From Phyllosticta citribraziliensis (Eukaryota), in the NCBI RefSeq assembly GCF_038025025.1, contig NW_027117343.1, positions 1,116,001 through 1,180,000 of the forward strand: a DNA stretch of 64,000 bases. The letters are read 5' to 3'. This document shows, one piece after another, positions 46,886-64,000 of the stretch (positions within the stretch are counted from its first letter, which is position 1; every line of letters begins with the position of its first letter). Position numbers and translations under genes: made by a program. Below the pieces are notes generated by a model. The model was not told the DNA's origin, did not search any database, and saw only the letters and a list, made by a program, of their open reading frames with translations.

Positions 46886-49813
46886 ATGGGCTCAGAAAAG
46901 GGCCTCCTCAAAGCGGACACGCCGCCTCGCGGCCGGAGCAAGTCGCCTTCGGCCAACGCCAACGGCAATGGCAAGGTCAAGGCCCGCAGCTACACCTCCG
47001 AAGGTGTCAAGGACAATGACATTACCAAGCTCCCTGCCTCGGACTGGCAGCTGCTCGGCCTCCTCACCCTCGTTGCTGCCGGCGTGAGGTTGTTTAGAAT
47101 CTACCAGCCCGGCAGCGTTGTATTTGACGAAGTCCAGTGAGTACAGCCTTGCTTTCCTCGAAAACCCAGACCCACATCTGACCGCATCCTCGCAGCTTTG
47201 GCGGCTTTGCATCCAAGTACATCAAGGGCAAGTTCTTCATGGACGTACATCCACCGCTTGCGAAACTCCTCATAACTCTGGCGGGATGGCTGGCTGGGTT
47301 CGATGGCGAATTCGACTTCAAGGACATTGGAAAGGACTACATTGAGCCTGGCGTTCCCTACGTCGCCATGCGCCTTCTTCCCGCAATCATGGGTGTCTTG
47401 ACGATTCCGACCATGTTTTTGACGCTCAAGTCTTTTGGCTGCAAATCCAACATTGCAGCGCTCGGGGCTGGTCTGCTCATTTTTGGTAGGGGATAGATGA
47501 CGCGGCTTTCTAGAATGCGCGGCTGACAGGTTCCAGAAAACGGCTTCGTCACCCAATCTCGCCTGATCCTTCTCGACTCGCCTCTGGTCATCTTCACGGC
47601 CTTCACAGCGCTTTGCTGGGCTTCTTTTGTGAACCAGCATGAACAAGGTCCCTCCAAGGCCTTTAAGCCCTCTTGGTGGACGTATCTCGCCCTGACGGGT
47701 CTTGGTCTCGGCGCAACTGTGAGCGTGAAATGGGTTGGCTTGTTCACGATCGCATGGGTGGGCAGCTTGACCGCTGTCCAGATGTGGGTTCTCTTGGGTG
47801 ACCCGCAACATGTCACGCCGCGCCTCTGGTTCAAGCACCTCTTTGCGCGCGTCTTTTGTCTCATCGTGATTCCAATTGCCTTTTACGTTGGCATGTTTGC
47901 GATTCATTTCCTCTGTCTCGTCAATCCAGGAGAGGGAGATGGCTTCATGTCTGCCGAATTCCAGGCGACGCTCAACACCAAACAGATGGCCGAGGTTCCC
48001 GCGGACATCGCCTTTGGAAGCCGTGTTTCGATTCGCCACCACAATACCCAGGGTGGTTACCTTCATTCTCACCCGCACATGTATCCCACGGGAAGCAACC
48101 AGCAGCAGATCACCTTATACCCTCACAAGGACGAGAACAACCTGTTCCTCCTCGAAAACCAAACCCAGCCAATTCTGCCCGACAACAGGACCATTCCTGG
48201 CCCCACGGCCTGGGATGCTCTGGATCCTGCCTGGATCGAGGACGGCTCCATCATCAAGCTTTACCACGTCACCACAGACCGTCGTCTCCACTCCCACGAC
48301 GTCCGTGCCCCAGTCACCGAGGCCGACTGGCAAAACGAAGTCTCTGCCTATGGCTACGAAGGTTTCGAGGGTGATGCGAACGATTTGTTCAAGGTCGAAA
48401 TCGTCCCTTGGATGTCTGACGGTGACAAGGCCAAGAAGCGGTTGCGCACCATCGAATCCAAGTTCAAGCTTGTACACATCATGACTGGTTGCACTCTCTT
48501 CTCGCACAAAGTCAAGCTTCCCGATTGGGGTTACGAGCAGCAAGAGGTCACTTGTGCAAGGGGCGGAAGTCTTCCCAACAGCGTCTGGTATATTGAGCAG
48601 AACCTTCACCCCAAGCTTGGTGCCGATGCCGAGAAGGTCAACTACAGGAACCCGGGATTCTTTGGTAAATTCTGGGAGCTCCAGAAGGTCATGTGGAAGA
48701 CGAATGCTGGTCTCGTTGAGTCTCATGCTTGGGACTCTCGTCCTCCATCTTGGCCAATCCTCCAGCGTGGTATCAACTTCTGGGGACAAAACCACCGCCA
48801 GATCTACCTCATTGGAAACCCCCTGGTTTGGTGGTCGTCGACCGCCGCAGTTGTCTTTTACCTCATATTCAAGGGCTTTGCCGTCATCCGTTGGCAACGT
48901 GGATACAAGGACTACAAGAACACGACTGTCAAGCGTTTCGACTACGAAGTCGGCACGATTCTTTTGGGGTGGTTCTTCCACTACTTCCCATTCTTTCTGA
49001 TGCAGCGTCAACTCTTCTTGCACCACTACTTTCCGGCGCTTTACTTTGCCATCATGGGTCTGGCGCTGACCTACGACTTTGTCACCAACCGGTTCTCTGG
49101 CCTCGGATTGAAGGAGCGCCCCATGATTGGCCAGACTGGTGCCATCGTCTTCTTGGCAGCTAGCATTGTCGTCTTCACCGTTTACGCTCCTTTGACTTAC
49201 GGAAACCCCTGGACAAAGAGCCACTGCAAGTCCGCCAAGCTGTTTGACAAGTGGGACTGGGACTGCAACACTTTCCACGACAGGGTAAGTAGTCATGCGT
49301 TCGATTGGAGGCTTGTTTTCTAACATTTCGCAGTACGATGAGTACGGCCCGCTCTGGGTCCCCAAGCCCTCCGAGACTGCGGTTCCCACCGCAGTGCCTC
49401 AGGTGGCCGAGGTTCCGGGAGAGAAGAAGGAGGCCGTCGTCAGCCCACCGCCACCTGTCGACGGCCAAGTCGTCGATGAGAAGGTTGAATACCGTGACGA
49501 AAATGGCAACATTCTCAATGAGGAGCAAGTCAAGGCGCTCGAGGGCAAGGTCAGCTTCAAGACGCGCTACGAGACGCGGACGCGCCTTGTTGACTCGGCG
49601 GGCAATGATGTGAACCAGGGCGGCGTGGCGCCTCCCCATCCCGACGTGCAGGGCCAAAACCCAGAGACTATTGAGAAGCCGGCGGACGGAGCACGTCAGG
49701 AACCCCTGGCAGTGCCTGTCAGCGAGGACAAGGAGAAGGAGGCAAGCGTCGAGAACGAGGACAAGGGAAAGCCGCGGCCGGCGAGCGAACCTAGGGAGGC
49801 CACGAAGCAGTAA
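46886..49813 (+). CDS. PMT1: Dolichyl-phosphate-mannose protein O-mannosyltransferase, PMT1 subfamily
   Basis: VVFDEVH-FGGFASKYI..FMDVHPPLAKL, SVKWVGLFT, MIR repeats (YLHSHPHMYPTGSNQQQITLYPHKDENN), RQLFLHHYFPALYF. Introns 47137-47195, 47486-47536 and 49285-49333. Confidence 0.93.
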
Positions 49814-50179
49814 GCCAGGCACTCTCCGTTCTCGTTGGATTTTCCCAGGAGTTCTTCCTTGTTCTTCCTCATCAAACATGTTCCAATAATCCTGTTCTGC
49901 TGAAATGCATACAACATCCTTTAACAAATCATGTCATGCATCTGCTGCGGTGCGTTCTGGTCTGTCGCTGTTCCATCTCCTCGACCTCTTTGCTTTTGGT
50001 CCTCTTTATAAAACGAAATCATCTTCAAGGGCTCCTTCCTATGTAATCGTCGCTTTGTAGCATCGGGAGTGTGAGAATTAGCTAGGTCAATCAAGGGGCT
50101 AGGCTAGGGTAGGGTAGGCGCAGGCTGTTTTCTTCGACGATGGCCAATATATTTAAACTCGATTGTCTCACCCTCGTGT

Positions 50180-50501
50180 CTTATTTACTATCTATAGTGG
50201 AATTAGTATTTATAGGGTTAATATTTACTTAAATAAAGAGTATATTATTATAGAGTAAGTTAATTTTATTAAGTAATATAAGTAATTACGGCGTATATAT
50301 ACTAGTAAGCTTATATTATATAGCTATCTACTTTATTATAGTAGCTAGTAGAGTAAGTCTTATAGACTTCTATTTATTTATTTATTTATTTAGTTTAATA
50401 TCCCTCTTAATTCTAAGACTATAAGAGATAAGGATAGCTATCCTAGTAGTTCTATATAGCTTATATATTATATATCCTATTAGGTTATAACTATATTAGG
50501 A

Positions 50502-50533
<32 letters not shown>

Positions 50534-51294
50534 AGTATGGTACTACTAGCCGGCACGGTTTTTACAGCTTTTAAGGGTTACTTTTAGCGATTATTATTCT
50601 TATTCTTAGCTATAGTTTTAGCTTAGATATAAGTAGAAGGTTAGGCTAGTAAGAAAATAAGACTATAGGTAGCTCTAGAATACTAGGAAGATATAGTTCT
50701 ATATAGTTTAGTAGTAATAATAATAGCTAATAAAAGTATAGGTAAACTTAGCATCTTAGATAGTAATAGGAGGTTTTATATTATTAGTATTTTTAGTAGT
50801 AGATTAGCTAGTTATATACCTCCTTTTATAGCTACTTATTAAGAGGTACTACTTATATAAATAAAGTCTTTTATACTTAGTTAAACTATTATCTAAAAAA
50901 TACTTAGTTATTTATTTATTTATACTTATTATTTATACCTAAATTATATACTACTTAGATAATAAAGTAATAGCTAGATAGTAGCTTATTTTAGTTAGTT
51001 TAGTAGTTATTTTATTCCTATCCTATAGAGCCTACTTATTTACTACTAGTTACTATCTCTTATACCTCTTCTAGCGCTAGTATTTTAGCTAGCTAAGTAA
51101 GTATATTAGTAAGTAGCTAGTCCTACCTATACTAGTCCTTCTTATTATATACTATAGCGCGCGCAGTTTATATTTTATAGTATTTAGTACTTAGTATTTA
51201 CTACTTATATATATACTAGCTGTTTCTAGCTAGCTAGAGAGTAGATAGTTATTCTATATAGGCTATATAATAACTACTCTTACTCCTTACCTAT
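50180..51294. mobile_element. Heavily RIP-degraded repeat of unidentified family; host of the LTR insertion
   Basis: Abrupt switch to TpA-saturated AT-rich DNA; contains (TA)n at about 50502-50528; no recognisable protein motif. Confidence 0.5.
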
Positions 51295-51717
51295 TATTAT
51301 AATAGGCGTACACGCGCCTACGTGAGTACTAGGGCCAGTATAGACAAACCCGGCGTTATATAGTTATAAGAAGTACAAGCCTCACCTTAGGTAGTAGCCC
51401 GCCGCAGCTTAGGCTAAAACCTGCAGGCTAGTACTAGCCACTACAGCCTGGCACCAGCCACTACAGCTCTAGGCAGATACTATGTAATAGCCCATTAACA
51501 CCTTACCTTTATAACTTACCTAATAATAACTAAGGACCCTTATATAAAGGATAAGAGGTAGAATAGTATAAAGGAAGGACTAGGAAATATATAAGTAGTA
51601 AGTATCTTTTATATTTTATTCTTTTAACTTATTAGATTTAATTAAGATATATATATATTTTCTAGTAGTTCACCTTTAGCCCTTACCTGTATAATAAGAA
51701 ATCTATAAGTTATAATA
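51295..51717 (+). repeat. 5' LTR of copy 1
   Basis: Matches 59112-59534 apart from C>T/G>A changes; termini TA(TG)...TA(CA); internal ~20-bp tandem duplication near 51427-51468. Confidence 0.95.
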
Positions 51718-54700
51718 GATATAAAAGATTATTTTAAGTTTTAGCTCTATCCTACTTCTTTACCTATAAAGGTATTATAATATTTAACCTAAGTAATATT
51801 ATATATAGCTATAGTCTTATATAAGACTGCTTATTACTTTTCCCTAGTAAACCTAAGTTATCTTTATTAGGCGCATTAGTATTATCTAAGGACTAAGGAG
51901 CATTAAGTATATATTAACTATAGAAGTCTTTAGTTAAGGCTATAGGGTAGTATATAAATATTTAGGAGGTATCCTATCTATAACCTACTTAAGGGACATT
52001 CTAAGTAGAAGACTATAAAGATAGTATAGCTAAGAATAAAGCTAATATATCTAGTACTACTAAAGGTATTAGTACTAGTTAATCAACTTAATAAGATTCG
52101 CGTAAAGGGACTAAAGATTTATATAATACTAGATACTTATTAAATAATAATAAGAGAGGACCTACCCCTATTCTCCTATATAATTTCTACTTAGTCCTAG
52201 TAGTAGAGGTAAAAGAATATACCTAAGACCTAGGGTCAACTTATACAGTTTAAGCTCTAGTTATAGAGGCATTTATAAAGGTACCACGCTTAGATATTAA
52301 TTAATTTAAATCTAAGATTACATCCTTAAATAAGTCTTAAGTATAGCAGCAACTAAACTACATATAAAGGTAAAACTAGGCTCTTAAGTAAATACTCTTA
52401 AACTATACTAATAGACTTAGGGAAGTTCTAAGGGAAGGATATATTAGGCCCTCTTTATTAGCTTAGCACCTAAGACCTATCACCCTCTCTTAAGATCCTT
52501 CTACTAGTAGAGTTATAAGGACTCTTAGACCTCCTCCTAACTATATAAGGGAAACTACTACTAAAACCTCTACTTTATCTTTAAGTAGTAAGAAATACTA
52601 AAGTAGTAAGGTTCCTAATCCTCCTCTTCTTACTAATAGAGAAGACCCCTTATATAAATACTAGACCCTCCTTATATAAAATAAAATTAAATAAAACCAC
52701 AATTACTTTACTAAAGATATAGTAGAGGAGACTAAATAGAATATTATAGGTTATATTATTTCCTATATTAGTAGAGAAGTCTTATATCACCTAACTCCTT
52801 TCCTTACTTCTTATATAAAGGCCAATAAAGTCACTCTAGATAAGGATATCTTTAAATTCCTAGATAACCTCCTCTAGAGTCTATATAAATATAAGGATAT
52901 AAAGAAGTAGTTACGCTCTCTTATATACCACATCCCTATAGACCTTTAGAAGTTTTAATTAAACTTTATATAATTAGCCTTAGATATAGATCTTCCCTAG
53001 GAATAGTAAAAAGAGGACTTTTATAATATAATAGATCCTCTCCTTTAAACCTATATAGTTACTATAGAGTAAGATAGGAATATTAACTTTTATAAGTACC
53101 TCTAATAAGCCTACCCTATTACTTAAAGTCTTAGTAACTACTATTCTAACTATAGAAAACTAACGCTCACGTCGTATAAGGAATAAGTAAAGAAGAGATA
53201 ATAAGAATAAGTAAAGATAACTACCTTAGGTAGTATAAGTACTTTATCTTCTAGTTATACCTAGGCGCGATCTATATCTAGGGCTCCCTTATATAATATA
53301 ACCTATAAAGGTAAAGTAGAAGTCTATATAGAGATTAGACCGTATAATCACTATAGCCAGTTTAGCTATTTATAGAGACAATGCCTATAACCTAAGATAA
53401 AGGTAATAGAGTTAGTTAAAGAAGAAAGTACTAAAGATATCTATATAAATAAAGGAGATTAGTCTTTATTAGAAAATAATAAGACCTAGGTAAAGTCTCC
53501 TACTATAGGTCTAAACTTAGAGCAATACATATTAAGGGTTCTTATATAAATCTTAGTTACTTTATTAGAGGTGTACCCTTTACTATATAAACCTTAATTA
53601 TATCTAATAGCCACGCCTTAGAAATTCGTGCCCTAGCTAATACTAGTACTAGTAGTATAAGTTTTATTCACCCTAAGCTACTACTAACTCTCCAGTCTAT
53701 AGGTACTATAAAAAAGAGAATAATAGGTAAAGGGCTTAATATTACTAGGTTTAACCGACGCATAAATAAGAAAGTCAATTTTTACTTTTATCTTTAACTC
53801 TACTTCTAGGATTAAATAGTTTCTACTTATACTTTTATTTATAATATTAGCTATAATAACATAATTCTTAGGTAATAGTTTTTCGACCAGCACGATGTTC
53901 TTCTAGACTATAAATAATATAAACTAGTCTAGAGATAGCTACTAATTAACTAATCCTTTTAGCATCTTTTACGCCTACTAAAAATCTCTATATAAAGCAA
54001 TAAACTATAGAAAGAACATTAAGTAGATATAGACTATAGAGATAAAAACTTTAATAAATACCTTCTTCCCTTAGTATAGGTTATTAAGGGAATTAAATTT
54101 TAAACTCAAGATACTTTTAAGCTTTCTATCTATAAAATACAAGTTATACTAATAGAGATCTATACTATTAACCTCATACAAGTTTAAGCGGCTCTTAAAG
54201 ATAAGGAAACTAAGGAATTACTAGCTTCTAAGCTACTAGCTACTTATAAGGAATTTTAAGATATATTTTCTAAAATAAAGTCTAACAAGCTACTACTATA
54301 TCATATAGGAGTTAATCATAAAATATCTCTTATATATAATAGTCTACTAGAGCTTCCACCTAGCCCTCTCTATAGAATGTCTCTAGAACAGCTTAAGGCT
54401 ATAAAAGAGTATATCATTAAGAATATTTAGAAAGGCTTTATTACTAAAAGCTTTACTACCTACACTTCTCCTATTCTAGTAGTAAAAAAGCCTAGTAGGG
54501 GATAGAGATTTTATATAGACTACTAATAGCTTAATAAATAAACTACTAAGGATTTACACCCCCTCCCTCTTATTATAGAGTTACTTTAGTATATTAGAAA
54601 GGGCAAGATTTACACTAAGCTTAATATTTAATAAGCTTTCTACTACATCTATCTTACTAAGGATTCTGAAGATAAAACCACTTTCTATATAAGATACAGG

Positions 54701-57319
54701 TTATTTAAATACTATATCTTACCTTTTAGATTAAGTAATAGACTAGTAGCCTTTTAATATTTTATTAACCAGGTTCTCTTTAAGTATTTAGATAATTTTA
54801 TTGTAGCTTTTATAGATAATATGCTTATTATCTCTAAAAACCCTATAGAGCATAAGGAATAAGTAAAAAAAGTACTAGTAAGACTATAAAAGGCGGGACT
54901 ATAGGTAGATTTAAAGAAGAGCAAGTTTTTAGTTATTTATATAAAGTTTCTTAGATATATTATTTCTATAGAAGGCATTTAAATAGACCTAGATAAGGTA
55001 GAACCTATATATAACTAGCTAATACTTAAAACCCTTAAGGCTCTTTAATCCTTCCTAGGTTTCTATAATTTCTACTAATAATTTCTCCCTAACTATAGAT
55101 AAATTAGCTAGCTATTAGAGAAACTATACTCTAAGGTAAAATAGTAACAACTAGGACCCCTAGAAGAGGAGGCAATTTAATAACTTAAGAAGCTAATATA
55201 TAGTAACATACTTCTAGCTAACTATAACCCTACTCTTAACACTTATATAGAGACTAATATAAGTAATAGAGTTACTATAGGCGTTTTAATATAGCTCTAA
55301 CAACCTTTATATAATTAGAAACTAGTAGCGTTCTACTCTAAGGTAATAGCTAATATAGAACTTTATTATAGAATATCTAATAAAGAACTGCTAGCTATTA
55401 AGAATAGACTAGAAGAATAGAGACTAATACTTATTAGCCTTAAAAAACCTTTTCTCATAATAATAGACTATTAGGTATTAGAGTACTACTCTACTAAATA
55501 ACAACTTAATTAATAACAAGCTAGATAGTCTAAGTTTTTTATAGAGTTCTATATACAATTCTCCTATTAGCTAGGAAAGGAAAATATCATTACTAATTAC
55601 CTTACTTAAAAATAAGAAGACCTAAAGACTTAAAAAGAAAAAGTAAAGGCTACATAAGAGATGTGCCTTATCTTACTAGAGACTATTATCCCTCTTTTTA
55701 TTTTAGAATAAGAACTTCCTTCTCTAGTATTATTTTTAGATAAACTTCTCTATATAAACTAAGAAGATTCTAAATTAGAACTCTAGAGATAGAAGGCCCT
55801 CTTAAAAGACCTTAAATAAAGAAATAGTTAGGAACTAAAGGATAGTCTTTTATTATAATATAGCACCCTCTTTATACTAGATCACAATAACCTCCGCGCG
55901 AGAATACTTAATACTTTATATACTACCTATATAACTACCTATCCTAGTATTATAAAGATATAAAAACTCCTTAAGTAATATTACTACTAGCTAGCTATAA
56001 ATCGCACGATTAATATTTACAGGCAAGGATACTATATTTACTACTAAATAAAAGAGTTTTATAATAAAGACCTAGGCCTTCTATAACCCCTAGAGATTCC
56101 TACTCGACCCTAGTAATACTTAGCTATAGATTTTAAAGAGATGCCTAAAGACTAAAAAGGCTACAATATAATCCTAGTTATTATAGACTAGTTAAGTTAA
56201 AGAACCTTTAGCTTACCTTATATAAAGAAGATTAATACTAAAGGAGTCTCTAGACTCTTTTATAAATATATCTACTATATTTATAGAAACCCTAAGTCTA
56301 TCCTATCTAACTAAGGCCCTTAGTTCATCTCAGCATTTATAAATAAACTATATAAGCTAACTAGTATAGAGCAGCATTTTAACTCATCCTACTACTCTTA
56401 AACTAATAGTATTATAGAGATTATTAATTAGCATCTTATATAAAGATTAAGACCTTTTATCAATTACTTTTAGAATAATTAGTCTAATCTTCTACTATTA
56501 ATAGACCTCGCACAAGTAATACTTCCCTATAAAGCTACTAGACTTTTACCTTTTAAGATTAAGTTAGGATATTCCCCTTAAATACACTATAACTAGTAAT
56601 AAAGAATAGAGACCCCCTAGTAACTAGAAAAGATAGCTCATATAGTAGCATAAACACTATAAAAGAGAAGATAAGAAGCTTTTAAATTTATAAAGAATCT
56701 TATTCTTAAATCCTAAGAGTATATATACTAATAAGCTAATAAATACCGTCGCATGCCAGACTTTACAGTTAGAGATTACATCTATATTAAGAAAACTAGA
56801 TGGTCTACTAATTAGCTAAACCTTAAATTAGACTTCTCTAATACTAGACCTTTTAAAATTATAGGAATAGAAGGACCCTCCTACATCCTTAATCTTTCCT
56901 TATATATAAAGATAGTTAACCTTTTCCACGCTAATAGGCTATATAAGGCCGAAATAGAACAGCTTCCTAGTTAGGAATATACTAAACCTAAACCTAAGAT
57001 TATTTAAGACGAGCCTAAGTAGGAAGTAGACCATATTTAAGCTAGTTAAGTCTTATATAGGAAGCTTTAATACCAAGTTAAATAGACTAGATACAACTAA
57101 GATGACTAGTAGTATAATGTAAGTTCTTTTAGTAGCGTGCTATAGAAAATTAAAGAATTCTACTTATTACACCCTATTATAGCAGGACTACTAAAAAATC
57201 TAGAAAAATAGAAGGCTGCCTTCCTCTAAGAAGAACTATAGATTAAAATAGAAAGTAATAATAAAATAAGTCACTTAGGCCTATAGTAAATATTATAAAG
57301 ACATAGAAAGTAGACTAAT

Positions 57320-59112
57320 TAGTTTACTATCTACCCTTATATAAATACTATTAATCTTGACTTCTACTCTCTAGTCTCTCCTTTTTACTACTTATTCCCT
57401 ACTATCCTCTTCTTTAATTTCTACCCTTTACTTCTTTCCTTTTCCCTTCTTCTTATTATAATAGTTATTATATAAGACCGTCTCCTCTAGATCCTCTAGC
57501 TTATTAGGCAGGATATTCTACTTAGCTAAAGCCTAATTAGTTTAATCCTCTAACCTAGCTTAGTAGTGCAAGTTCTAGAACTCCTCTATATAAATTTTGT
57601 CTTTATGCCTCTTATAATGAGCAGGCAGCTTGGCACCCTTTAAGTCACTTATAGTGTAGTTAAGGTTGCCTATACCCTAAAGGCAGTTAGCGCAGCAGCC
57701 CTATAAGAAACTAGGCAGGTAGTAACAACTAATAAACGCGCGAGTGTTAATATTATTACGACACTTAGTATAGCTAATAGGGTTATTAATTCTAGTGTAC
57801 TAGATAAGAAAAGCATCATATAAGCTGGCTTAAGTTTTAACTAATAAGTAGTTAAATTGCCAAGTAGAAACTATAATGTGTGAGTGAGGCATGCTATTAT
57901 CTAAGGCCAAGATGCGCTTAGTATGCTCTTGTACTTTAGAACTACTAAGGCGCGCCTATATAGTTAGTTAGATAAGAATCCCTTATATTAGTAAGATAAA
58001 CTTACTTACGCGACACTCTCTATATTCTTATAAGGGATATAAAGTATTAACTTAAAGTCCTACTTAATAGGCACCTTATTAGAGCCAACTAGTAACACTA
58101 TAATATGAATCTTACTGTCGCTGCTGTCGTGTAAAGTAGCAGGCAGCAAGTACTTAGCTACTAGAACCTAATAAGCTGTAGGATTATAATAATAGTATAT
58201 ATAAGTAGGCTCTTTACCTTCTTCCTCTAAAATAGGCTGCGCGACAGTAAACTAGCAGTAATATAGTGTAATAGGCTGGTTAGTAGCAGGCTATATAGCT
58301 ATAGATGACAAACCTCATATAATAACTAATAATACTAATTAAGTAGAACCTAATACTATAGTATACTATAGGTAAAGTAATAAGCCTATAGCTGTTCCTA
58401 GCTAAATAAGTAAAGCCTAGCCTAACTAAGTCTTTATATAAGTATCCTCCTCTATAATTATATTAGTTAGCAAGACGGGATAATAAAGCAGTAAAACCTA
58501 GATATATAATACTACTTAATAGCCTAGATAATAATTAGTAATAGTTAGAGATAGAATTAAAGTTTACTTACCTTAGGACTCTATATAATAGTCCTTATAG
58601 ATACTGCCAGCTAAAATAGCCCTCTAAGCGAGCGGTAACTATAACAGATCGCGAATAATGCTGCATAATAATAACTTAATACTGTAACTCTTATATAATA
58701 GTAATAAGTCCTAATAGACCAGACTATAATAAGTAGTAGACGTATTAAGTATATAGTAGCTAGGAATGTCTGCTTTACTATTAGTAGGGTATAAATTATT
58801 TAAATTATTAGAACCTTTATGCGTAATAGTCAGTTTACTAGATTATAGCTAAATTAGACTAGGATAACAATGTACTTTAATAGGGAGCTTTAGACATAGC
58901 TAAGTAAGATAGCAACCTTCTATAGGTCGCGCGGTAAAAGAGATAGTAATAGAAAGAGATGGTATAGTAGTAGACCTAGACTAATAATTATACTACACAT
59001 ATAGAACACTTAAATTACTAAATCACTACTATTATACATTACAAGTCTGCGCCTATATAAGCGCCTATAGCTACTAATTCCTACAATTTTAGCTTCTCTT
59101 TAGGGGGGGCAT
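57320..59112 (-). pseudogene. RIP-mutated antisense, intron-containing ORF of copy 1 (DUF3716-like six-Cys domain)
   Basis: Introns GTAAGT..CTAAC..TAG at 58571-58524 and 58005-57956. KCR..F.SC..LP..GCCANCL is readable directly at about 57770-57680. The 3' end is approximate. Confidence 0.65.
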
Positions 59113-59534
59113 ATTATAATAGGCATATATATACCTATATAAGTACTAGGGCCAGCATAGATAAACCTAGTATTATATAGTTATAAGAAGCATAAGCCTC
59201 ACCTTAGATAGCAGCCCACTACAGCTTAGGCTAAAACCCGCAGGCTAGTACCAGCTACTACAGCCTAGTACTAGCTACTACAGCCTTAGGAAGATACTAT
59301 ATAACAGCCTATTAATACCTTACCTTTATAACTTACCTAATAATAACTAAGGACCCTTATATAAAGGATAAGAGGTAGAACAGTATAAAGGAAGGACTAG
59401 GAAATATATAGGTAGTAAGTATCTTTTATATTTTATTCTTTTAACTTATTAGATTTAATTAAGACACATACATATTCTCTAGCAGTTTACCTTTAGCCCT
59501 TACCTATATAATAAGAAATCTATAAGTCATAACA
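59112..59534 (+). repeat. 3' LTR of copy 1
   Basis: Follows the PPT and ends ...gtcataaca; 423 bp. Confidence 0.95.
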
Positions 59535-60502
59535 AACTATAACTCTTATTATTAAAGTTCTTCTAGACTAATTTATTTAGATCTAAACTATAGACTATAA
59601 TATTACTATATCCTTCTTTTAAGGAGTAGCCTTAAAGTCTAAAATATAAAAGAGATAATATAAACCTTAACTAAATTAAGTACTTTAGATTTACTAGAGG
59701 TATTAACTTTTCCTTCTCTTTTTTACTTTCTATTTTAGAAAGAACTAACTATACTATTTTCCCCTAATTAGGACTATTCTTTAGTCCTTATATAGCTCTT
59801 TATATCCTAATATTAATAACTAACTTTTATCTATTAGTTCTTTTAGAATAAACCTTTATTTTAATTTATAAGAAGGGATATCCTCCTTTTTCTCTTCTTT
59901 AAACCTAAATTACCCTTTACTTATAAGTTATACTTTTAGGTCTTATAATAGCTTTATATATAACTATTATAATAATAATTTATTAGGAAATATAGTAAGA
60001 TTCCTAAGAGCCTAATAGTATACCTAATAAGTTAGGTACTAAGGGTAATATAAGGGTTTACCCCTAGATAGGTACTACTATAAATAGTAGAATTTAATCT
60101 ATTATAATAGTCCTTACTATCTATAATACCTAAGCTAGTTTCTCTCTTAGCTAGTAGGAACTAGTACTAAATAAGTAAAGATTCCTTTCTTACTAAGAAA
60201 CTTCTACCTTAAATATCTTTATAAGTACTAGTACTATAGACTTAAGAGCTATACTATTTAATAGGGCTTAGCCTATAGTACTTATATATAATATTAGGGG
60301 ATAAATAATCTACTTATTATCTTTATACTTTAGTATCTAATCTTAGGTAAAGACCTTATTTTTATATAGTACTTCTAGTAGATTTAAAACTATAGTATTT
60401 TAACCTAATAAGTCTTATCCTCTTATAAGTAGTAAGAGACCTATTAATAGTATTATAGTACCTAGTAGAGTAAATTAATATAGACTACTAATAATTAATA
60501 GG
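59535..60502. mobile_element. RIP-degraded spacer between the two inverted copies, probably host-repeat sequence in inverted orientation
   Basis: TpA-saturated; ends in atagg, the reverse complement of the cctat that precedes copy 1. Confidence 0.5.
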
Positions 60503-63500
60503 TATTACAACTTGCAGATTTCTTATTATATAAGTAAGGGCTAAAGGTAAACTGCTAGAGAATGTATATATATCTTAATTAAATCTAATAAGTTAAAAGA
60601 ATAAAATATAAAAGATACTTACTACCTATATATTTTCTAGTCCTTCCTTTATACTATTCTACCTCTCATCCTTTATATAAGGGTCCTTAGTTATCATTAG
60701 GTGAGTTATAAAGGTAAGGTGTTAATAGGCTGTTGCGTGGTATCTGCCTAGGGCTGTAGTAGCTGGTGCCAGGCTATAGTAGCTAGTACCAGCCTGTAGG
60801 TTTTAGCCTAAGCTACAGTGGGCTGCTACCTAAGGTAAGGCTTATGCTTCTTATAACTATATAATGCTAGGTTTATTTATACTAGCCCTAGTACTTATAT
60901 AGGTATATATATGCCTATCATAATATGCCCCCCCTAAAGAGAAGCTAAAATCATAGGAATTGGCAGCTACAGGCGCTTATATAGGCGCAGACTCGTAATA
61001 TATAATAGTAGTAATTTGGCAATTTAAGTATTCTATATATATAGTATAATTATTAGTCTAGGTCTACTACTACACTATCTCTTTCTATTACTATCTCTTT
61101 TACCGCGCAACCTATAGAAGGTCGCCATCTTACTTAGCCATATTTAAAGCTCCCTATTAAAGTATGTTATTATCCCGGTCTAATTTAGCTATAATCTAGT
61201 AAACTAACTATTATATATAAAGGTTCTAATAATTTAAATAATTTGTACCCTACTAATAGTAAAGTAGATATTCCTAGCTGCTATATACTTAATACGTCTG
61301 CTACTTATTATAGTCTAGTCTATTAGGACTTATTACTATCATATAAGAGTTATAGTATTAAGTTATTATTATATAGCATTATTTATAATCTGTTATAGTC
61401 GCCGCTTACTTAGAGGGCTATTTTAGCTAGCAGTATCTATAAGGACTATTATATAGAGTCCTAAGATAAGTAAACTTTAATTCTATCTCTAATTATTACT
61501 AATTATTATCTAGGCTATTAAGTAGTATTATACATCTAGGTTTTACTACTTTATCATCCCATCTTACTAACCAATATAATTATAGAGGAGGACACTTATA
61601 TAAAGACTTAGTTAGGCTAGGCTTTACTTATTTAGCTAGAAATAGCTACAGGCTTGTTACTTTACCTATAGCATACTATAGTATTAGGTTCTACTTAATT
61701 AGTATTATTAGTTATCGCGCAAGGTTCGTCATCTATAGCTATATAGCCTGCTACTAACTAGCCTATTATGCTGCATTACTACTAGTTTACTGTTGCGCAG
61801 CCTATTTTAGAGGAAGAAGGTAAAGAGCCTACTTATATATACTATTATTATAATCCTGCAGCTTATTAGGTTCTAGTAGCTAAGTACTTGCTGCCTGCTA
61901 CTTTACATAATAGCAGTAACAGTGAGATTTATATTATAGCGTTGCTGGTTAGCTCTAATAAGGCGCCTATTAAGTAGGACTTTAAGTTAATACTTTATAT
62001 CCCTTATAAGAATATAGAGAGTGTCGTGTAAGTAAGTTTATCTTACTAATATAAGGGATTCTTATCTAACTAACTATATAGGCGCGCCTTAGTAGTTCTA
62101 AAGTATAAGAGTATACTGAGCGCATCTTGGCCTTAGGTAACAGCATGCCTTACTTATATATCATGGTTTCTACTTAGCAATTTAACTACTTATTAGTTAA
62201 AACTTAAGCCAGCTTATATAATGCTTTTCTTATCTAGTACACTGAAATTAATAACCCTATTAGCTATACTAAGTATTATGATAATACTAATACTCGCGTA
62301 TTTATTAGTTATTACTACCTACCTGGTTTCTTATAGGGCCACTATACTAACTGCCTTTAGGGTATAGGCAACCTTAACTACACTATAAGTGACTTGAAAG
62401 GTGCCAAGCCGCCTGCTTATTATAAGAGGCATAAAGATGAAATTTATATAGAGGAGTTCTAGAACTTATACTACTAAGCTAGGTTAGAGGATTAAACTAA
62501 TTAGGCTTTAGCTAAGTAGGACATCCTGCCTAATAAGCTAAAGGATCTAGAGGAGACGGTCTTATATAATAACTATTATAATAAGAAGAAGGGAAAAGGA
62601 AAGAAGTAAAGGGTAGAAATTAAAGAAGAGGATAGTAGAGAATAAGTAGTAAAAAGGAGAGACTAGAGAGTAGAAGTTAAGATTAATAGTATTTATATAA
62701 GAGTAGATAGTAAACTAATTAGTCTACTTTCTATATCTTTATAATATTTACTATAGGCCTAAGTAACTTGTTTTATTATTACTTTCTATTTTAATCTATA
62801 GTTCTTCTTAGAGGAAGGCAGCCTTCTATTTTTCTAGATTTTTTAGTAGTCCTACTATAACAGGGTATAATGAGTAGAATTCTTTAATTTTCTATAGTGT
62901 ACTACTAAAAGAACTTGTATTATACTACTAGTCATCTTAGTTATATCTAGTCTATTTAACTTAGTATTAAAGCTTCCTATATAAGACTTAACTAGCTTAA
63001 ATATAGTCTACTTCCTACTTAGGCTTATCTTAAATAATCTTAGGTTTAGGTTTAGTATATTCCTAACTAGGAAGCTGTTCCATTTTGGCCTTATATAGCC
63101 TGTTAGTATAGAAAAGGTTAACTATCTTTATATATAAGGGAAGATTAAGGATGTAGGAGGGTCCTTCTATTCCTATAATCTTAAAAGGTCTAGTATTAGG
63201 GAAGTCTAATTTAAGGTTTAGCTAATTAGTAGACCATCTAGTTTTCTTAATATAGATATAATCTCTAACTATAAAGTCTAGCGCGTGACAGTATTTATTA
63301 GCTTATTAGTATATATACTCTTAGGATTTAAGAATAAGATTCTTTATAAATTTAAAAGCTTCTTATCTTCTCTTTTATAGCATTTATACTACTATATAAG
63401 CCATCTTTTCTAGTTACTAGGGGGTCTCTATTCTTTATTACTAGTTATAGTATATTTAAGGGGAATATCCTAACTTAATCTTAAAAGGTAAAAGTCTAGT

Positions 63501-64000
63501 AGCTTTATAGGGAAGTATTACTTGTGCGAGGTCTATTAATAGTAGAAGATCAGACTAATTATTTTAAAAGTAATTAATAAAAGGTCTTAATCTTTATATA
63601 AGATGCTAATTAATAATCTCCATAATACTATTAGTTTAAGAGTAGTAGGATGAGTTAAAATACTACTCTATACTAGTTAGCTTATATAGTTTATTTATAA
63701 ATGCTAAGATGAACTAAGGGCCTTAGTTAGATAGGATAGACTTAGGGTTTCTATAAATATAGTAGATATATTTATAAAAGAGTCTAGAGACTCCTTCAGC
63801 ATTAATCTTCTTTATATAAGGCAAGCTAAAGGTTCTTCAACTTAACTAGTCTATAATAACTAGAATTGTATTATAGCCTTTTTAGTCTTTAGGCATCTCT
63901 TTAAAATCTATAGCTAAGTGTTGCCAGGGTTAAGTAGGAATCTCTAGGGGTTATAGAAGGCCTAGGTCTTTATTATAAAACTCTTTTATTTAGTAATAAA
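60503..64000 (-). mobile_element. Second, inverted copy of the same chromovirus (3' LTR, extra-ORF region, chromodomain and part of integrase; runs off the window)
   Basis: Reverse complement of copy 1, with position sum 120037 at every landmark checked; 3' LTR 60503-60925, PPT complement ccccccct at 60928-60935. Confidence 0.95.
60925..62720 (+). pseudogene. RIP-mutated antisense, intron-containing ORF of copy 2 (DUF3716-like six-Cys domain)
   Basis: ATG CCC CCC at 60925; introns 61466-61513 and 62032-62081; Cys domain 62265-62381; KKKGKGKK near 62584-62606. The 3' end is approximate. Confidence 0.65.

Follow-up and report, generated by a model that had tools for sequence, protein, structure and literature searches.

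A probable RIP-killed antisense coding relic with a DUF3716-like core between pol and the 3' LTR of a Ty3/gypsy element in Phyllosticta citribraziliensis

What occupies the long interval that separates pol from the 3' long terminal repeat (LTR) in a Ty3/gypsy element in the fungus Phyllosticta citribraziliensis? The question arises in a 64,000-nucleotide stretch of contig NW_027117343.1 (positions 1,116,001 to 1,180,000, RefSeq assembly GCF_038025025.1), hereafter the window, which contains two copies of the element, both altered by repeat-induced point mutation (RIP). An original prediction, made from the letters of the DNA, placed in this interval an additional gene on the strand opposite pol, encoding a protein with six regularly spaced Cys residues. 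The explanation that we favor, with somewhat better than even confidence, is that the interval is the site of an antisense accessory gene, functional in the past and since destroyed by RIP, of the brtn or aORF-3R kind (aORF, antisense open reading frame) known from other retrotransposons, and that its product was a zinc-binding and probably DNA-binding protein with a DUF3716-like domain and a basic tail. In both copies in the window, the antisense gene is dead.

The complete copy (copy 1) bears out the predicted distance of about 1.8 kb from pol to the 3' LTR: a chromodomain-like motif at the end of pol stops at 57175, and the LTR starts at 59112. In this copy, pol lies on the plus strand and the proposed exon on the minus strand, an arrangement that is mirrored in the second, truncated copy (copy 2), and the exon is situated between the end of pol and the polypurine tract (PPT) and 3' LTR. 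When the copies are combined into a "de-RIP" reading, in which C or G is chosen wherever they differ by a transition, the predicted antisense peptide is reproduced almost letter for letter in the frame of position 60927. Its cysteines are spaced C-x2-C-x11-C-x10-C-x2-C-x8-C in this reading, as the original prediction had it; four of the six Cys codons are intact in copy 1, and two are deduced from TAT or TAC. Copy 1 has one more Cys, which RIP created from an Arg codon (CGC to TGC). In the order of the exon, the Cys-rich core is followed by an acidic stretch and then by a Lys-rich tail, which, if it extends to ~62740 in copy 2, would nearly meet the end of pol tail to tail.

Two signals in this region exceed what chance provides, namely a purine/pyrimidine (R/Y) periodicity over positions 62086-62612 and a match to DUF3716. 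The R/Y pattern is untouched by RIP because RIP makes transitions only. Over these 527 nucleotides, the pattern has a period of three in the peptide's own frame (chi2 20.1, p 4.3e-5), with purines making up 0.58, 0.60 and 0.39 of the first, second and third codon positions, and the copy 1 exon shares this periodicity. The same measure is far weaker in the 4.2 kb of true pol (p 0.007). Positions 62082-62612, or ~175 codons, look like a former coding exon, as judged from this periodicity together with the domain match and the intron signals described below.

The second signal comes from Pfam scans, for which the damaged copies were translated with stops read through as X. Taken as a 61-residue piece, the copy 1 core matches DUF3716 (PF12511) with an E-value of 0.0028 (18.0 bits), and this is the sole Pfam family to appear at E<=10; the 174-residue read-through of copy 1 gives the same family at E 0.022 (15.1 bits). 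Control sequences are silent: 12 frames of flanking RIP-mutated DNA contain no Pfam match at E<=0.05, and, across the element as a whole, the five frames other than that of pol contain none at E<=0.1. The sensitivity of such scans can be gauged from the element itself, as its certain integrase reaches just 20.6 bits, compared with a cut-off of 32.6 bits, and the chromodomain-like motif scores nothing. Pfam scans of RIP-mutated elements thus badly under-call genuine domains. On balance, the Cys-rich core is probably a DUF3716 domain, although the evidence falls short of proof.

Both copies carry identical intron signals (GTAAGT, CTAAC and TAG) immediately ahead of the open stretch. The 54-nucleotide segment that they delimit contains three stops and has the textbook form of a short fungal intron, although an alternative donor 4 nucleotides downstream would yield a putative intron of 50 nucleotides. 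It is well established that a gene placed in the antisense direction within a retrotransposon can pass through the RNA stage with its intron intact, since splicing of the sense transcript does not remove it, whereas a sense-oriented gene would lose its intron. Applied to the present element, this logic would mean that the antisense placement let the putative intron persist through copying via the element RNA.

In an active ancestor, the antisense gene would have been transcribed from its own promoter, located in the PPT-proximal internal region or in the 3' LTR, against the direction of gag-pol. Its protein would have bound zinc through the six Cys residues and might have worked on DNA inside the nucleus, either regulating the element or serving as its targeting factor. 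This proposed nuclear role leans on a single DUF3716 protein of Neurospora, NCU05718, which binds double-stranded TTAGGG repeats directly and without an annotated DNA-binding domain (PMC4650311); a Fusarium DUF3716 protein is stated to be its orthologue (PMC10776026). The labels "nuclear" and "regulator" in the original prediction were guesses from the Lys-rich tail.

The 1.1 kb upstream of the putative intron could comprise a promoter, one or more 5' exons, or non-coding DNA. Positions 61503-61754, in the frame of 60927, are open for 84 codons in copy 2 and after de-RIP, and copy 1 has one TAA where copy 2 has a Gln codon. A likelihood based on an R/Y template has no discriminating power upstream of the intron. 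The start proposed in the original prediction, ATG-CCC-CCC, is the complement of the PPT. Within each copy, a 43-nucleotide segment of the accessory region (58432-58474 and 61563-61605) is 72% like an LTR segment (51507-51549 and 59324-59366) in inverted orientation; this likeness is probably due to chance in AT-rich DNA, although it is located where an antisense promoter could lie.

Several results weigh against the existence of a functional ancestral gene. Neither candidate frame of the upstream 1.1 kb exhibits significant R/Y periodicity, a Pfam match or a database relative, and four consecutive stops persist near residues 27-30 of the proposed start frame after de-RIP. With no upstream coding signal, the length of 550-570 residues that had been put forward is a guess and is not supported. 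DUF3716, the family named beforehand, is the lone Pfam match to the copy 1 core, but its best score lies below the Pfam gathering cut-off of 22 bits for PF12511, for a RIP-damaged query in which three stops are read as X and two Cys residues as Tyr. In a context of 410 residues, the match falls to E 0.49 (10.8 bits), and the copy 2 core, in which three of the four Cys residues of copy 1 are Tyr, has no DUF3716 match in Pfam. Profile positions 16-48 are the only ones that align, and the flanking Cys1 and Cys6, presumed to have been Cys, are TAT or TAC (Tyr) in both copies, which in the present sequence prevents a match at the profile ends. The two copies in the window are 93% identical and amount to one witness for the ancestral content. 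Finally, everything said of the protein's function is what we infer, and nothing else.

The searches for relatives of the protein also returned nothing in its favor. Word-indexed searches of 5.8 billion proteins, conducted with X-read-through alignments of both copies for the 3' exon (against longer proteins), a candidate "exon 1" in the frame of 60925 and the 410-residue read-through, gave no match. A full HMMER pass of the 3' exon over 1.84 billion representatives revealed no genuine relative. No relative was found among viral and metagenome contigs, by a related-locus search and, in the metagenome contigs, by an exact 22-mer search, and a sequence search of the PDB gave nothing at E<=10. 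These searches are weak because of the RIP damage and the AT-rich codon bias, and they did not include fungal genome collections, so the blank says little. Five HMMER matches, all to query positions 86-116 and with multiple repeats, were rejected as artefacts; they involve TPR/NACHT/CHAT or FctA pilin proteins.

At the level of DNA, by comparison, the region has relatives. It is present in both copies in the window, which are near-duplicates, and RIP-type contigs from three other organisms cover positions 57300-59551, LTR included. They are short and diverged, and number 205 in sequencing run X2 (29 of 30 bins covered), 13 in run X7 (26/30) and 3 in run X9 (9/30). Since these contigs span the region, it appears to be part of a multi-copy element family and not a private insertion, in agreement with the claim that it is integral to the family. 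Apart from one LTR-only contig in a run presumed to be RNA, the contigs represent RIP-type copies. At positions 58318-58321, three contigs of run X2 read CGCG where the window has TATA, which suggests that less mutated copies of the family exist in a related organism.

Might the region be cargo of the element rather than one of its working genes? The ancestor could have captured part of a DUF3716 gene from its host, or part of a DUF3716-bearing transposon such as REP9, and copied it along without benefit to itself. We consider this unlikely, even though DUF3716 genes are known both in hosts and on a DNA transposon (PMC8232023, PMC10776026), an intron fits a gene of cellular origin, and an upstream 1.1 kb devoid of coding signal resembles a truncated capture. 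Against it, the region fills the entire interval from pol to the PPT and exists in many diverged copies in several organisms, and antisense genes at precisely this site are described as recurrent and conserved in other families (PMC7264820). Moreover, we see no nested-element transposase or terminal repeats, and DUF3716 is the only Pfam match in the region.

We give still less credence to the view that the 1.8 kb is simply a non-coding 3' internal region, in which the peptide, its Cys cluster and the Pfam match are accidents of AT-rich, RIP-mutated DNA. Certain features of the peptide would indeed be unremarkable by chance. Stop counts do not discriminate, because they are equal in the proposed and the other frames and the true pol frame is equally ordinary; the 3' exon alone has 10-12 stops. 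Cys clusters are likewise uninformative by themselves, as translation of the 14-kb AT-rich block in six frames contains 5 loci with at least four Cys in 30 residues. The Pfam match is below its cut-off and sensitive to context, and no homologue emerged from any search made. Accident does not readily explain, however, why an R/Y periodicity with p 4.3e-5 resides in the very frame of the peptide, why the lone Pfam match is to the family named in advance, why control frames give no spurious matches, or why the intron signals occur exactly where the frame opens. Least probable in our view is a role at the RNA level only, in which antisense transcription via the 3' end (for copy-number control, double-stranded RNA or small RNA) mattered and the frame is incidental or had decayed before RIP; a review of aORFs raises such a role for antisense regions generally (PMC7264820) and the upstream part has no coding signal, but the codon-phase periodicity and the protein-domain match would be left unexplained.

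We therefore return to the remains of an antisense accessory gene as the preferred explanation, and to the element that carried it. Copy 1 is a full-length Ty3/gypsy element of 8,240 bp on the plus strand (51295-59534), and copy 2 is inverted relative to it and truncated by the end of the window (60503-64000). The two form an ungapped inverted repeat (56037-59551 and 60486-64000). They differ at 235 of 3,498 homologous bases; all but one of these differences (234/235) are transitions, and 140 of the 177 differences with an unambiguous neighbor are in a CpA/TpG context. This pattern, without gaps, indicates that the copies are duplicates of one source element that were independently mutated by RIP. 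The LTR termini TG..CA of copy 1 appear as TA..TA after RIP.

The flanks of the two copies were also compared. The sequence CCTAT precedes the 5' LTR of copy 1 (51290-51294) and, in element orientation, follows the 3' LTR of copy 2 (60498-60502), and the 3' flank of copy 1 itself, AACTA, does not match it. Such a pattern is what would be left by an inversion through recombination between inverted copies, with both LTRs having formerly bounded a single insertion.

The pol core of copy 1 (54482..56392) encodes reverse transcriptase, RNase H and integrase in that order in a single plus-strand frame. The motif that follows, which looks chromodomain-like by eye, has no Pfam match to Chromo at E<=10 in either copy; after RIP, it carries 9 stops in 51 codons (57023-57175, with its counterpart at 62862-63014). 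The end of pol is probably near 57240-57290 in copy 1. We infer that the label "chromovirus", as used in the original prediction, is likely to be correct.

Both copies reside in an AT-rich block at the edge of gene-rich host DNA. The G+C content is ~55% up to ~49.9 kb of the window and ~29% from there to its end, and the switch is sharp, occurring within 49300-50000 and thus a few hundred bases from the end of a protein O-mannosyltransferase gene (47527-49323). This border is the boundary between the gene-rich and the RIP-mutated isochore. Other genes in the host part encode SMC, PRP21-like, carboxylesterase and sulfatase proteins. Positions 50000-64000 bear the marks of RIP, with a TpA/ApT ratio of 1.79 (0.54 in host DNA) and a (CpA+TpG)/(ApC+GpT) ratio of 0.32 (1.25 in host DNA). 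The RIP-mutated DNA to the left of copy 1 (49900-51294) and between the copies (59535-60502) yields no Pfam match at E<=0.05 in six frames. The coordinates of the features are collected in Table 1.

Table 1. Features of the two element copies, in positions of the window
Feature	Position	Strand	Remarks
Copy 1 5' LTR	51295..51717	+	423 bp; direct repeat of 59112-59534; homology stops at 51717/59534 base by base
Copy 1 reverse transcriptase (RVT_1)	54482-54952	+	Pfam E 1.8e-13; frame of 51296
Copy 1 RNase H	55160-55549	+	RT_RNaseH_2 E 3.5e-10, RT_RNaseH E 1.3e-9; frame of 51296
Copy 1 integrase core (rve)	56102-56392	+	E 5.4e-4, 20.6 bits, below the 32.6-bit cut-off; frame of 51296
Copy 1 chromodomain-like motif, end of pol	57023..57175	+	Recognized by eye
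Copy 1 putative 3' exon of antisense gene	57425..57955	-	X-read-through; ~177 codons; frame may continue to ~57297
Copy 1 Cys-rich core, DUF3716 match	57680..57769	-	Profile positions 16-48 of 59
Copy 1 putative intron	57956..58009	-	54 nt; GTAAGT...CTAAC...TAG
Copy 1, 1.1 kb upstream of the putative intron (possible promoter, 5' exon(s) or non-coding DNA)	58010..59111	-	No significant periodicity, Pfam match or relative
Copy 1 polypurine tract AGGGGGGG	59102..59109	+	Directly before the 3' LTR
Copy 1 3' LTR	59112..59534	+	Direct repeat with the 5' LTR; base-by-base comparison
Copy 2 3' LTR	60503..60925	-	Inverted repeats; LTR end from base-by-base comparison
Copy 2 upstream 1.1 kb	60926..62027	+	Periodicity not significant
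Copy 2 putative intron	62028..62081	+	54 nt, in frame
Copy 2 putative 3' exon of antisense gene	62082..62612	+	X-read-through and de-RIP; Lys-rich charged tail may reach ~62740
Copy 2 Cys-rich core	62268..62357	+	Three of four copy 1 Cys codons are Tyr after RIP
Copy 2 pol, 3' part, with integrase C-terminus and chromodomain-like motif	62748..64000	-	Alignment to copy 1; cut by the window end

Taken together, the position of the region, the periodicity and the copy 1 Pfam match support the presence, in both copies, of a relic of antisense coding sequence that lies past pol and ahead of the 3' LTR and encodes a Cys domain like DUF3716. The original prediction is thus right in outline, over-extended in the length and function that it assigned to the protein, and less novel than was thought, as the layout of an antisense gene between pol and the LTR is already published for the brtn gene of Boty and the present case is a modest addition. 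Because the copies are dead, the domain is sub-threshold and this layout is known, the observation is chiefly useful as a starting point for surveying fungal LTR elements systematically. Should intact relatives bear it out, antisense accessory genes would be known from two lineages of fungal retrotransposon, and DUF3716 would for the first time be tied to an LTR element. Such confirmation would also strengthen the hint from REP9 that the uncharacterized fungal DUF3716 family travels with transposons, and would provide a concrete functional hypothesis for it, namely zinc-dependent DNA binding. Full-text literature on "DUF3716" and "PF12511" yielded no LTR retrotransposon with DUF3716, and a term search of the survey "LTR Retrotransposons in Fungi" did not find DUF3716 mentioned (PMC3248453).

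The locus also raises the questions of whether brtn encodes a DUF3716 protein and whether DUF3716 is a recurrent passenger of fungal transposons. A speculative answer, which we regard as doubtful, is that DUF3716 is a mobile-element DNA-binding module carried by unrelated classes of fungal transposon, including the present LTR element, possibly brtn, and REP9. Host DUF3716 genes, among them that of the telomere-repeat binder, would then have been domesticated from such elements, and the antisense orientation in LTR elements would be the one in which an intron survives reverse transcription.

Among known protein families, Zn2Cys6 clusters (Gal4-type, PF00172) have the spacing C-x2-C-x6-C-x5-12-C-x2-C-x6-8-C. 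The resemblance to them that the original prediction pointed out is one of layout, with six Cys residues and a C-x2-C ... C-x2-C arrangement. Here, however, 11 residues instead of 6 separate Cys2 from Cys3, and there is no Zn_clus match at E<=10; membership in this family was rejected.

Among known elements, the closest in layout are the Boty-like chromodomain elements of Botrytis and Sclerotinia, in which the gene brtn follows pol in antisense orientation, ahead of the 3' LTR (PMC7264820; Zhao 2011, Virology 417:248, as cited there). The work of Zhao on brtn is also cited in PMC8365987, PMC4227169 and PMC5987419; the pol of Boty contains a chromodomain (PMC4227169), and Porquier et al. draw brtn on BcGypsy1 (PMC8365987). 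The premise of the original prediction that chromoviruses encode Gag and Pol only is therefore outdated for fungi (PMC7264820, PMC8365987, PMC4227169). Like Boty, the present element is a gypsy element of an ascomycete in which an extra gene, opposite in strand to pol, occupies the space before the 3' LTR, although its chromodomain-like motif is recognized by eye. Boty copies include intact, transcribed ones, whereas both present copies are dead from RIP. The comparison with Boty covers layout.

The plant aORF-3R genes, which include gene23 of maize Grande, RIRE2, Retand ORF4 and PvRetro13 ORF2, share with the present element an antisense ORF in a long region between pol and the 3' LTR (PMC7264820). 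In Grande, the antisense gene is driven by a promoter of its own, and its product is a nuclear protein of unknown function, for which a regulatory role has been proposed (PMC7264820). Unlike the present element, the carriers of plant aORF-3R genes are non-chromovirus Tat/Retand elements, and the domains described for their products in that review are SMC-like or transposase 28, with none reported there to have DUF3716 (PMC7264820). A precedent for the domain is instead provided by REP9, a DNA transposon of the IS3EU type in Zymoseptoria tritici, on which the genes REP9-1 and REP9-2 both encode DUF3716 (PMC8232023). REP9 belongs to Class II and has a DDE transposase, and its DUF3716 genes are intact and expressed (PMC8232023), but it resembles the present element in being a fungal mobile element that carries a DUF3716 or DUF3716-like accessory gene besides its own enzyme.

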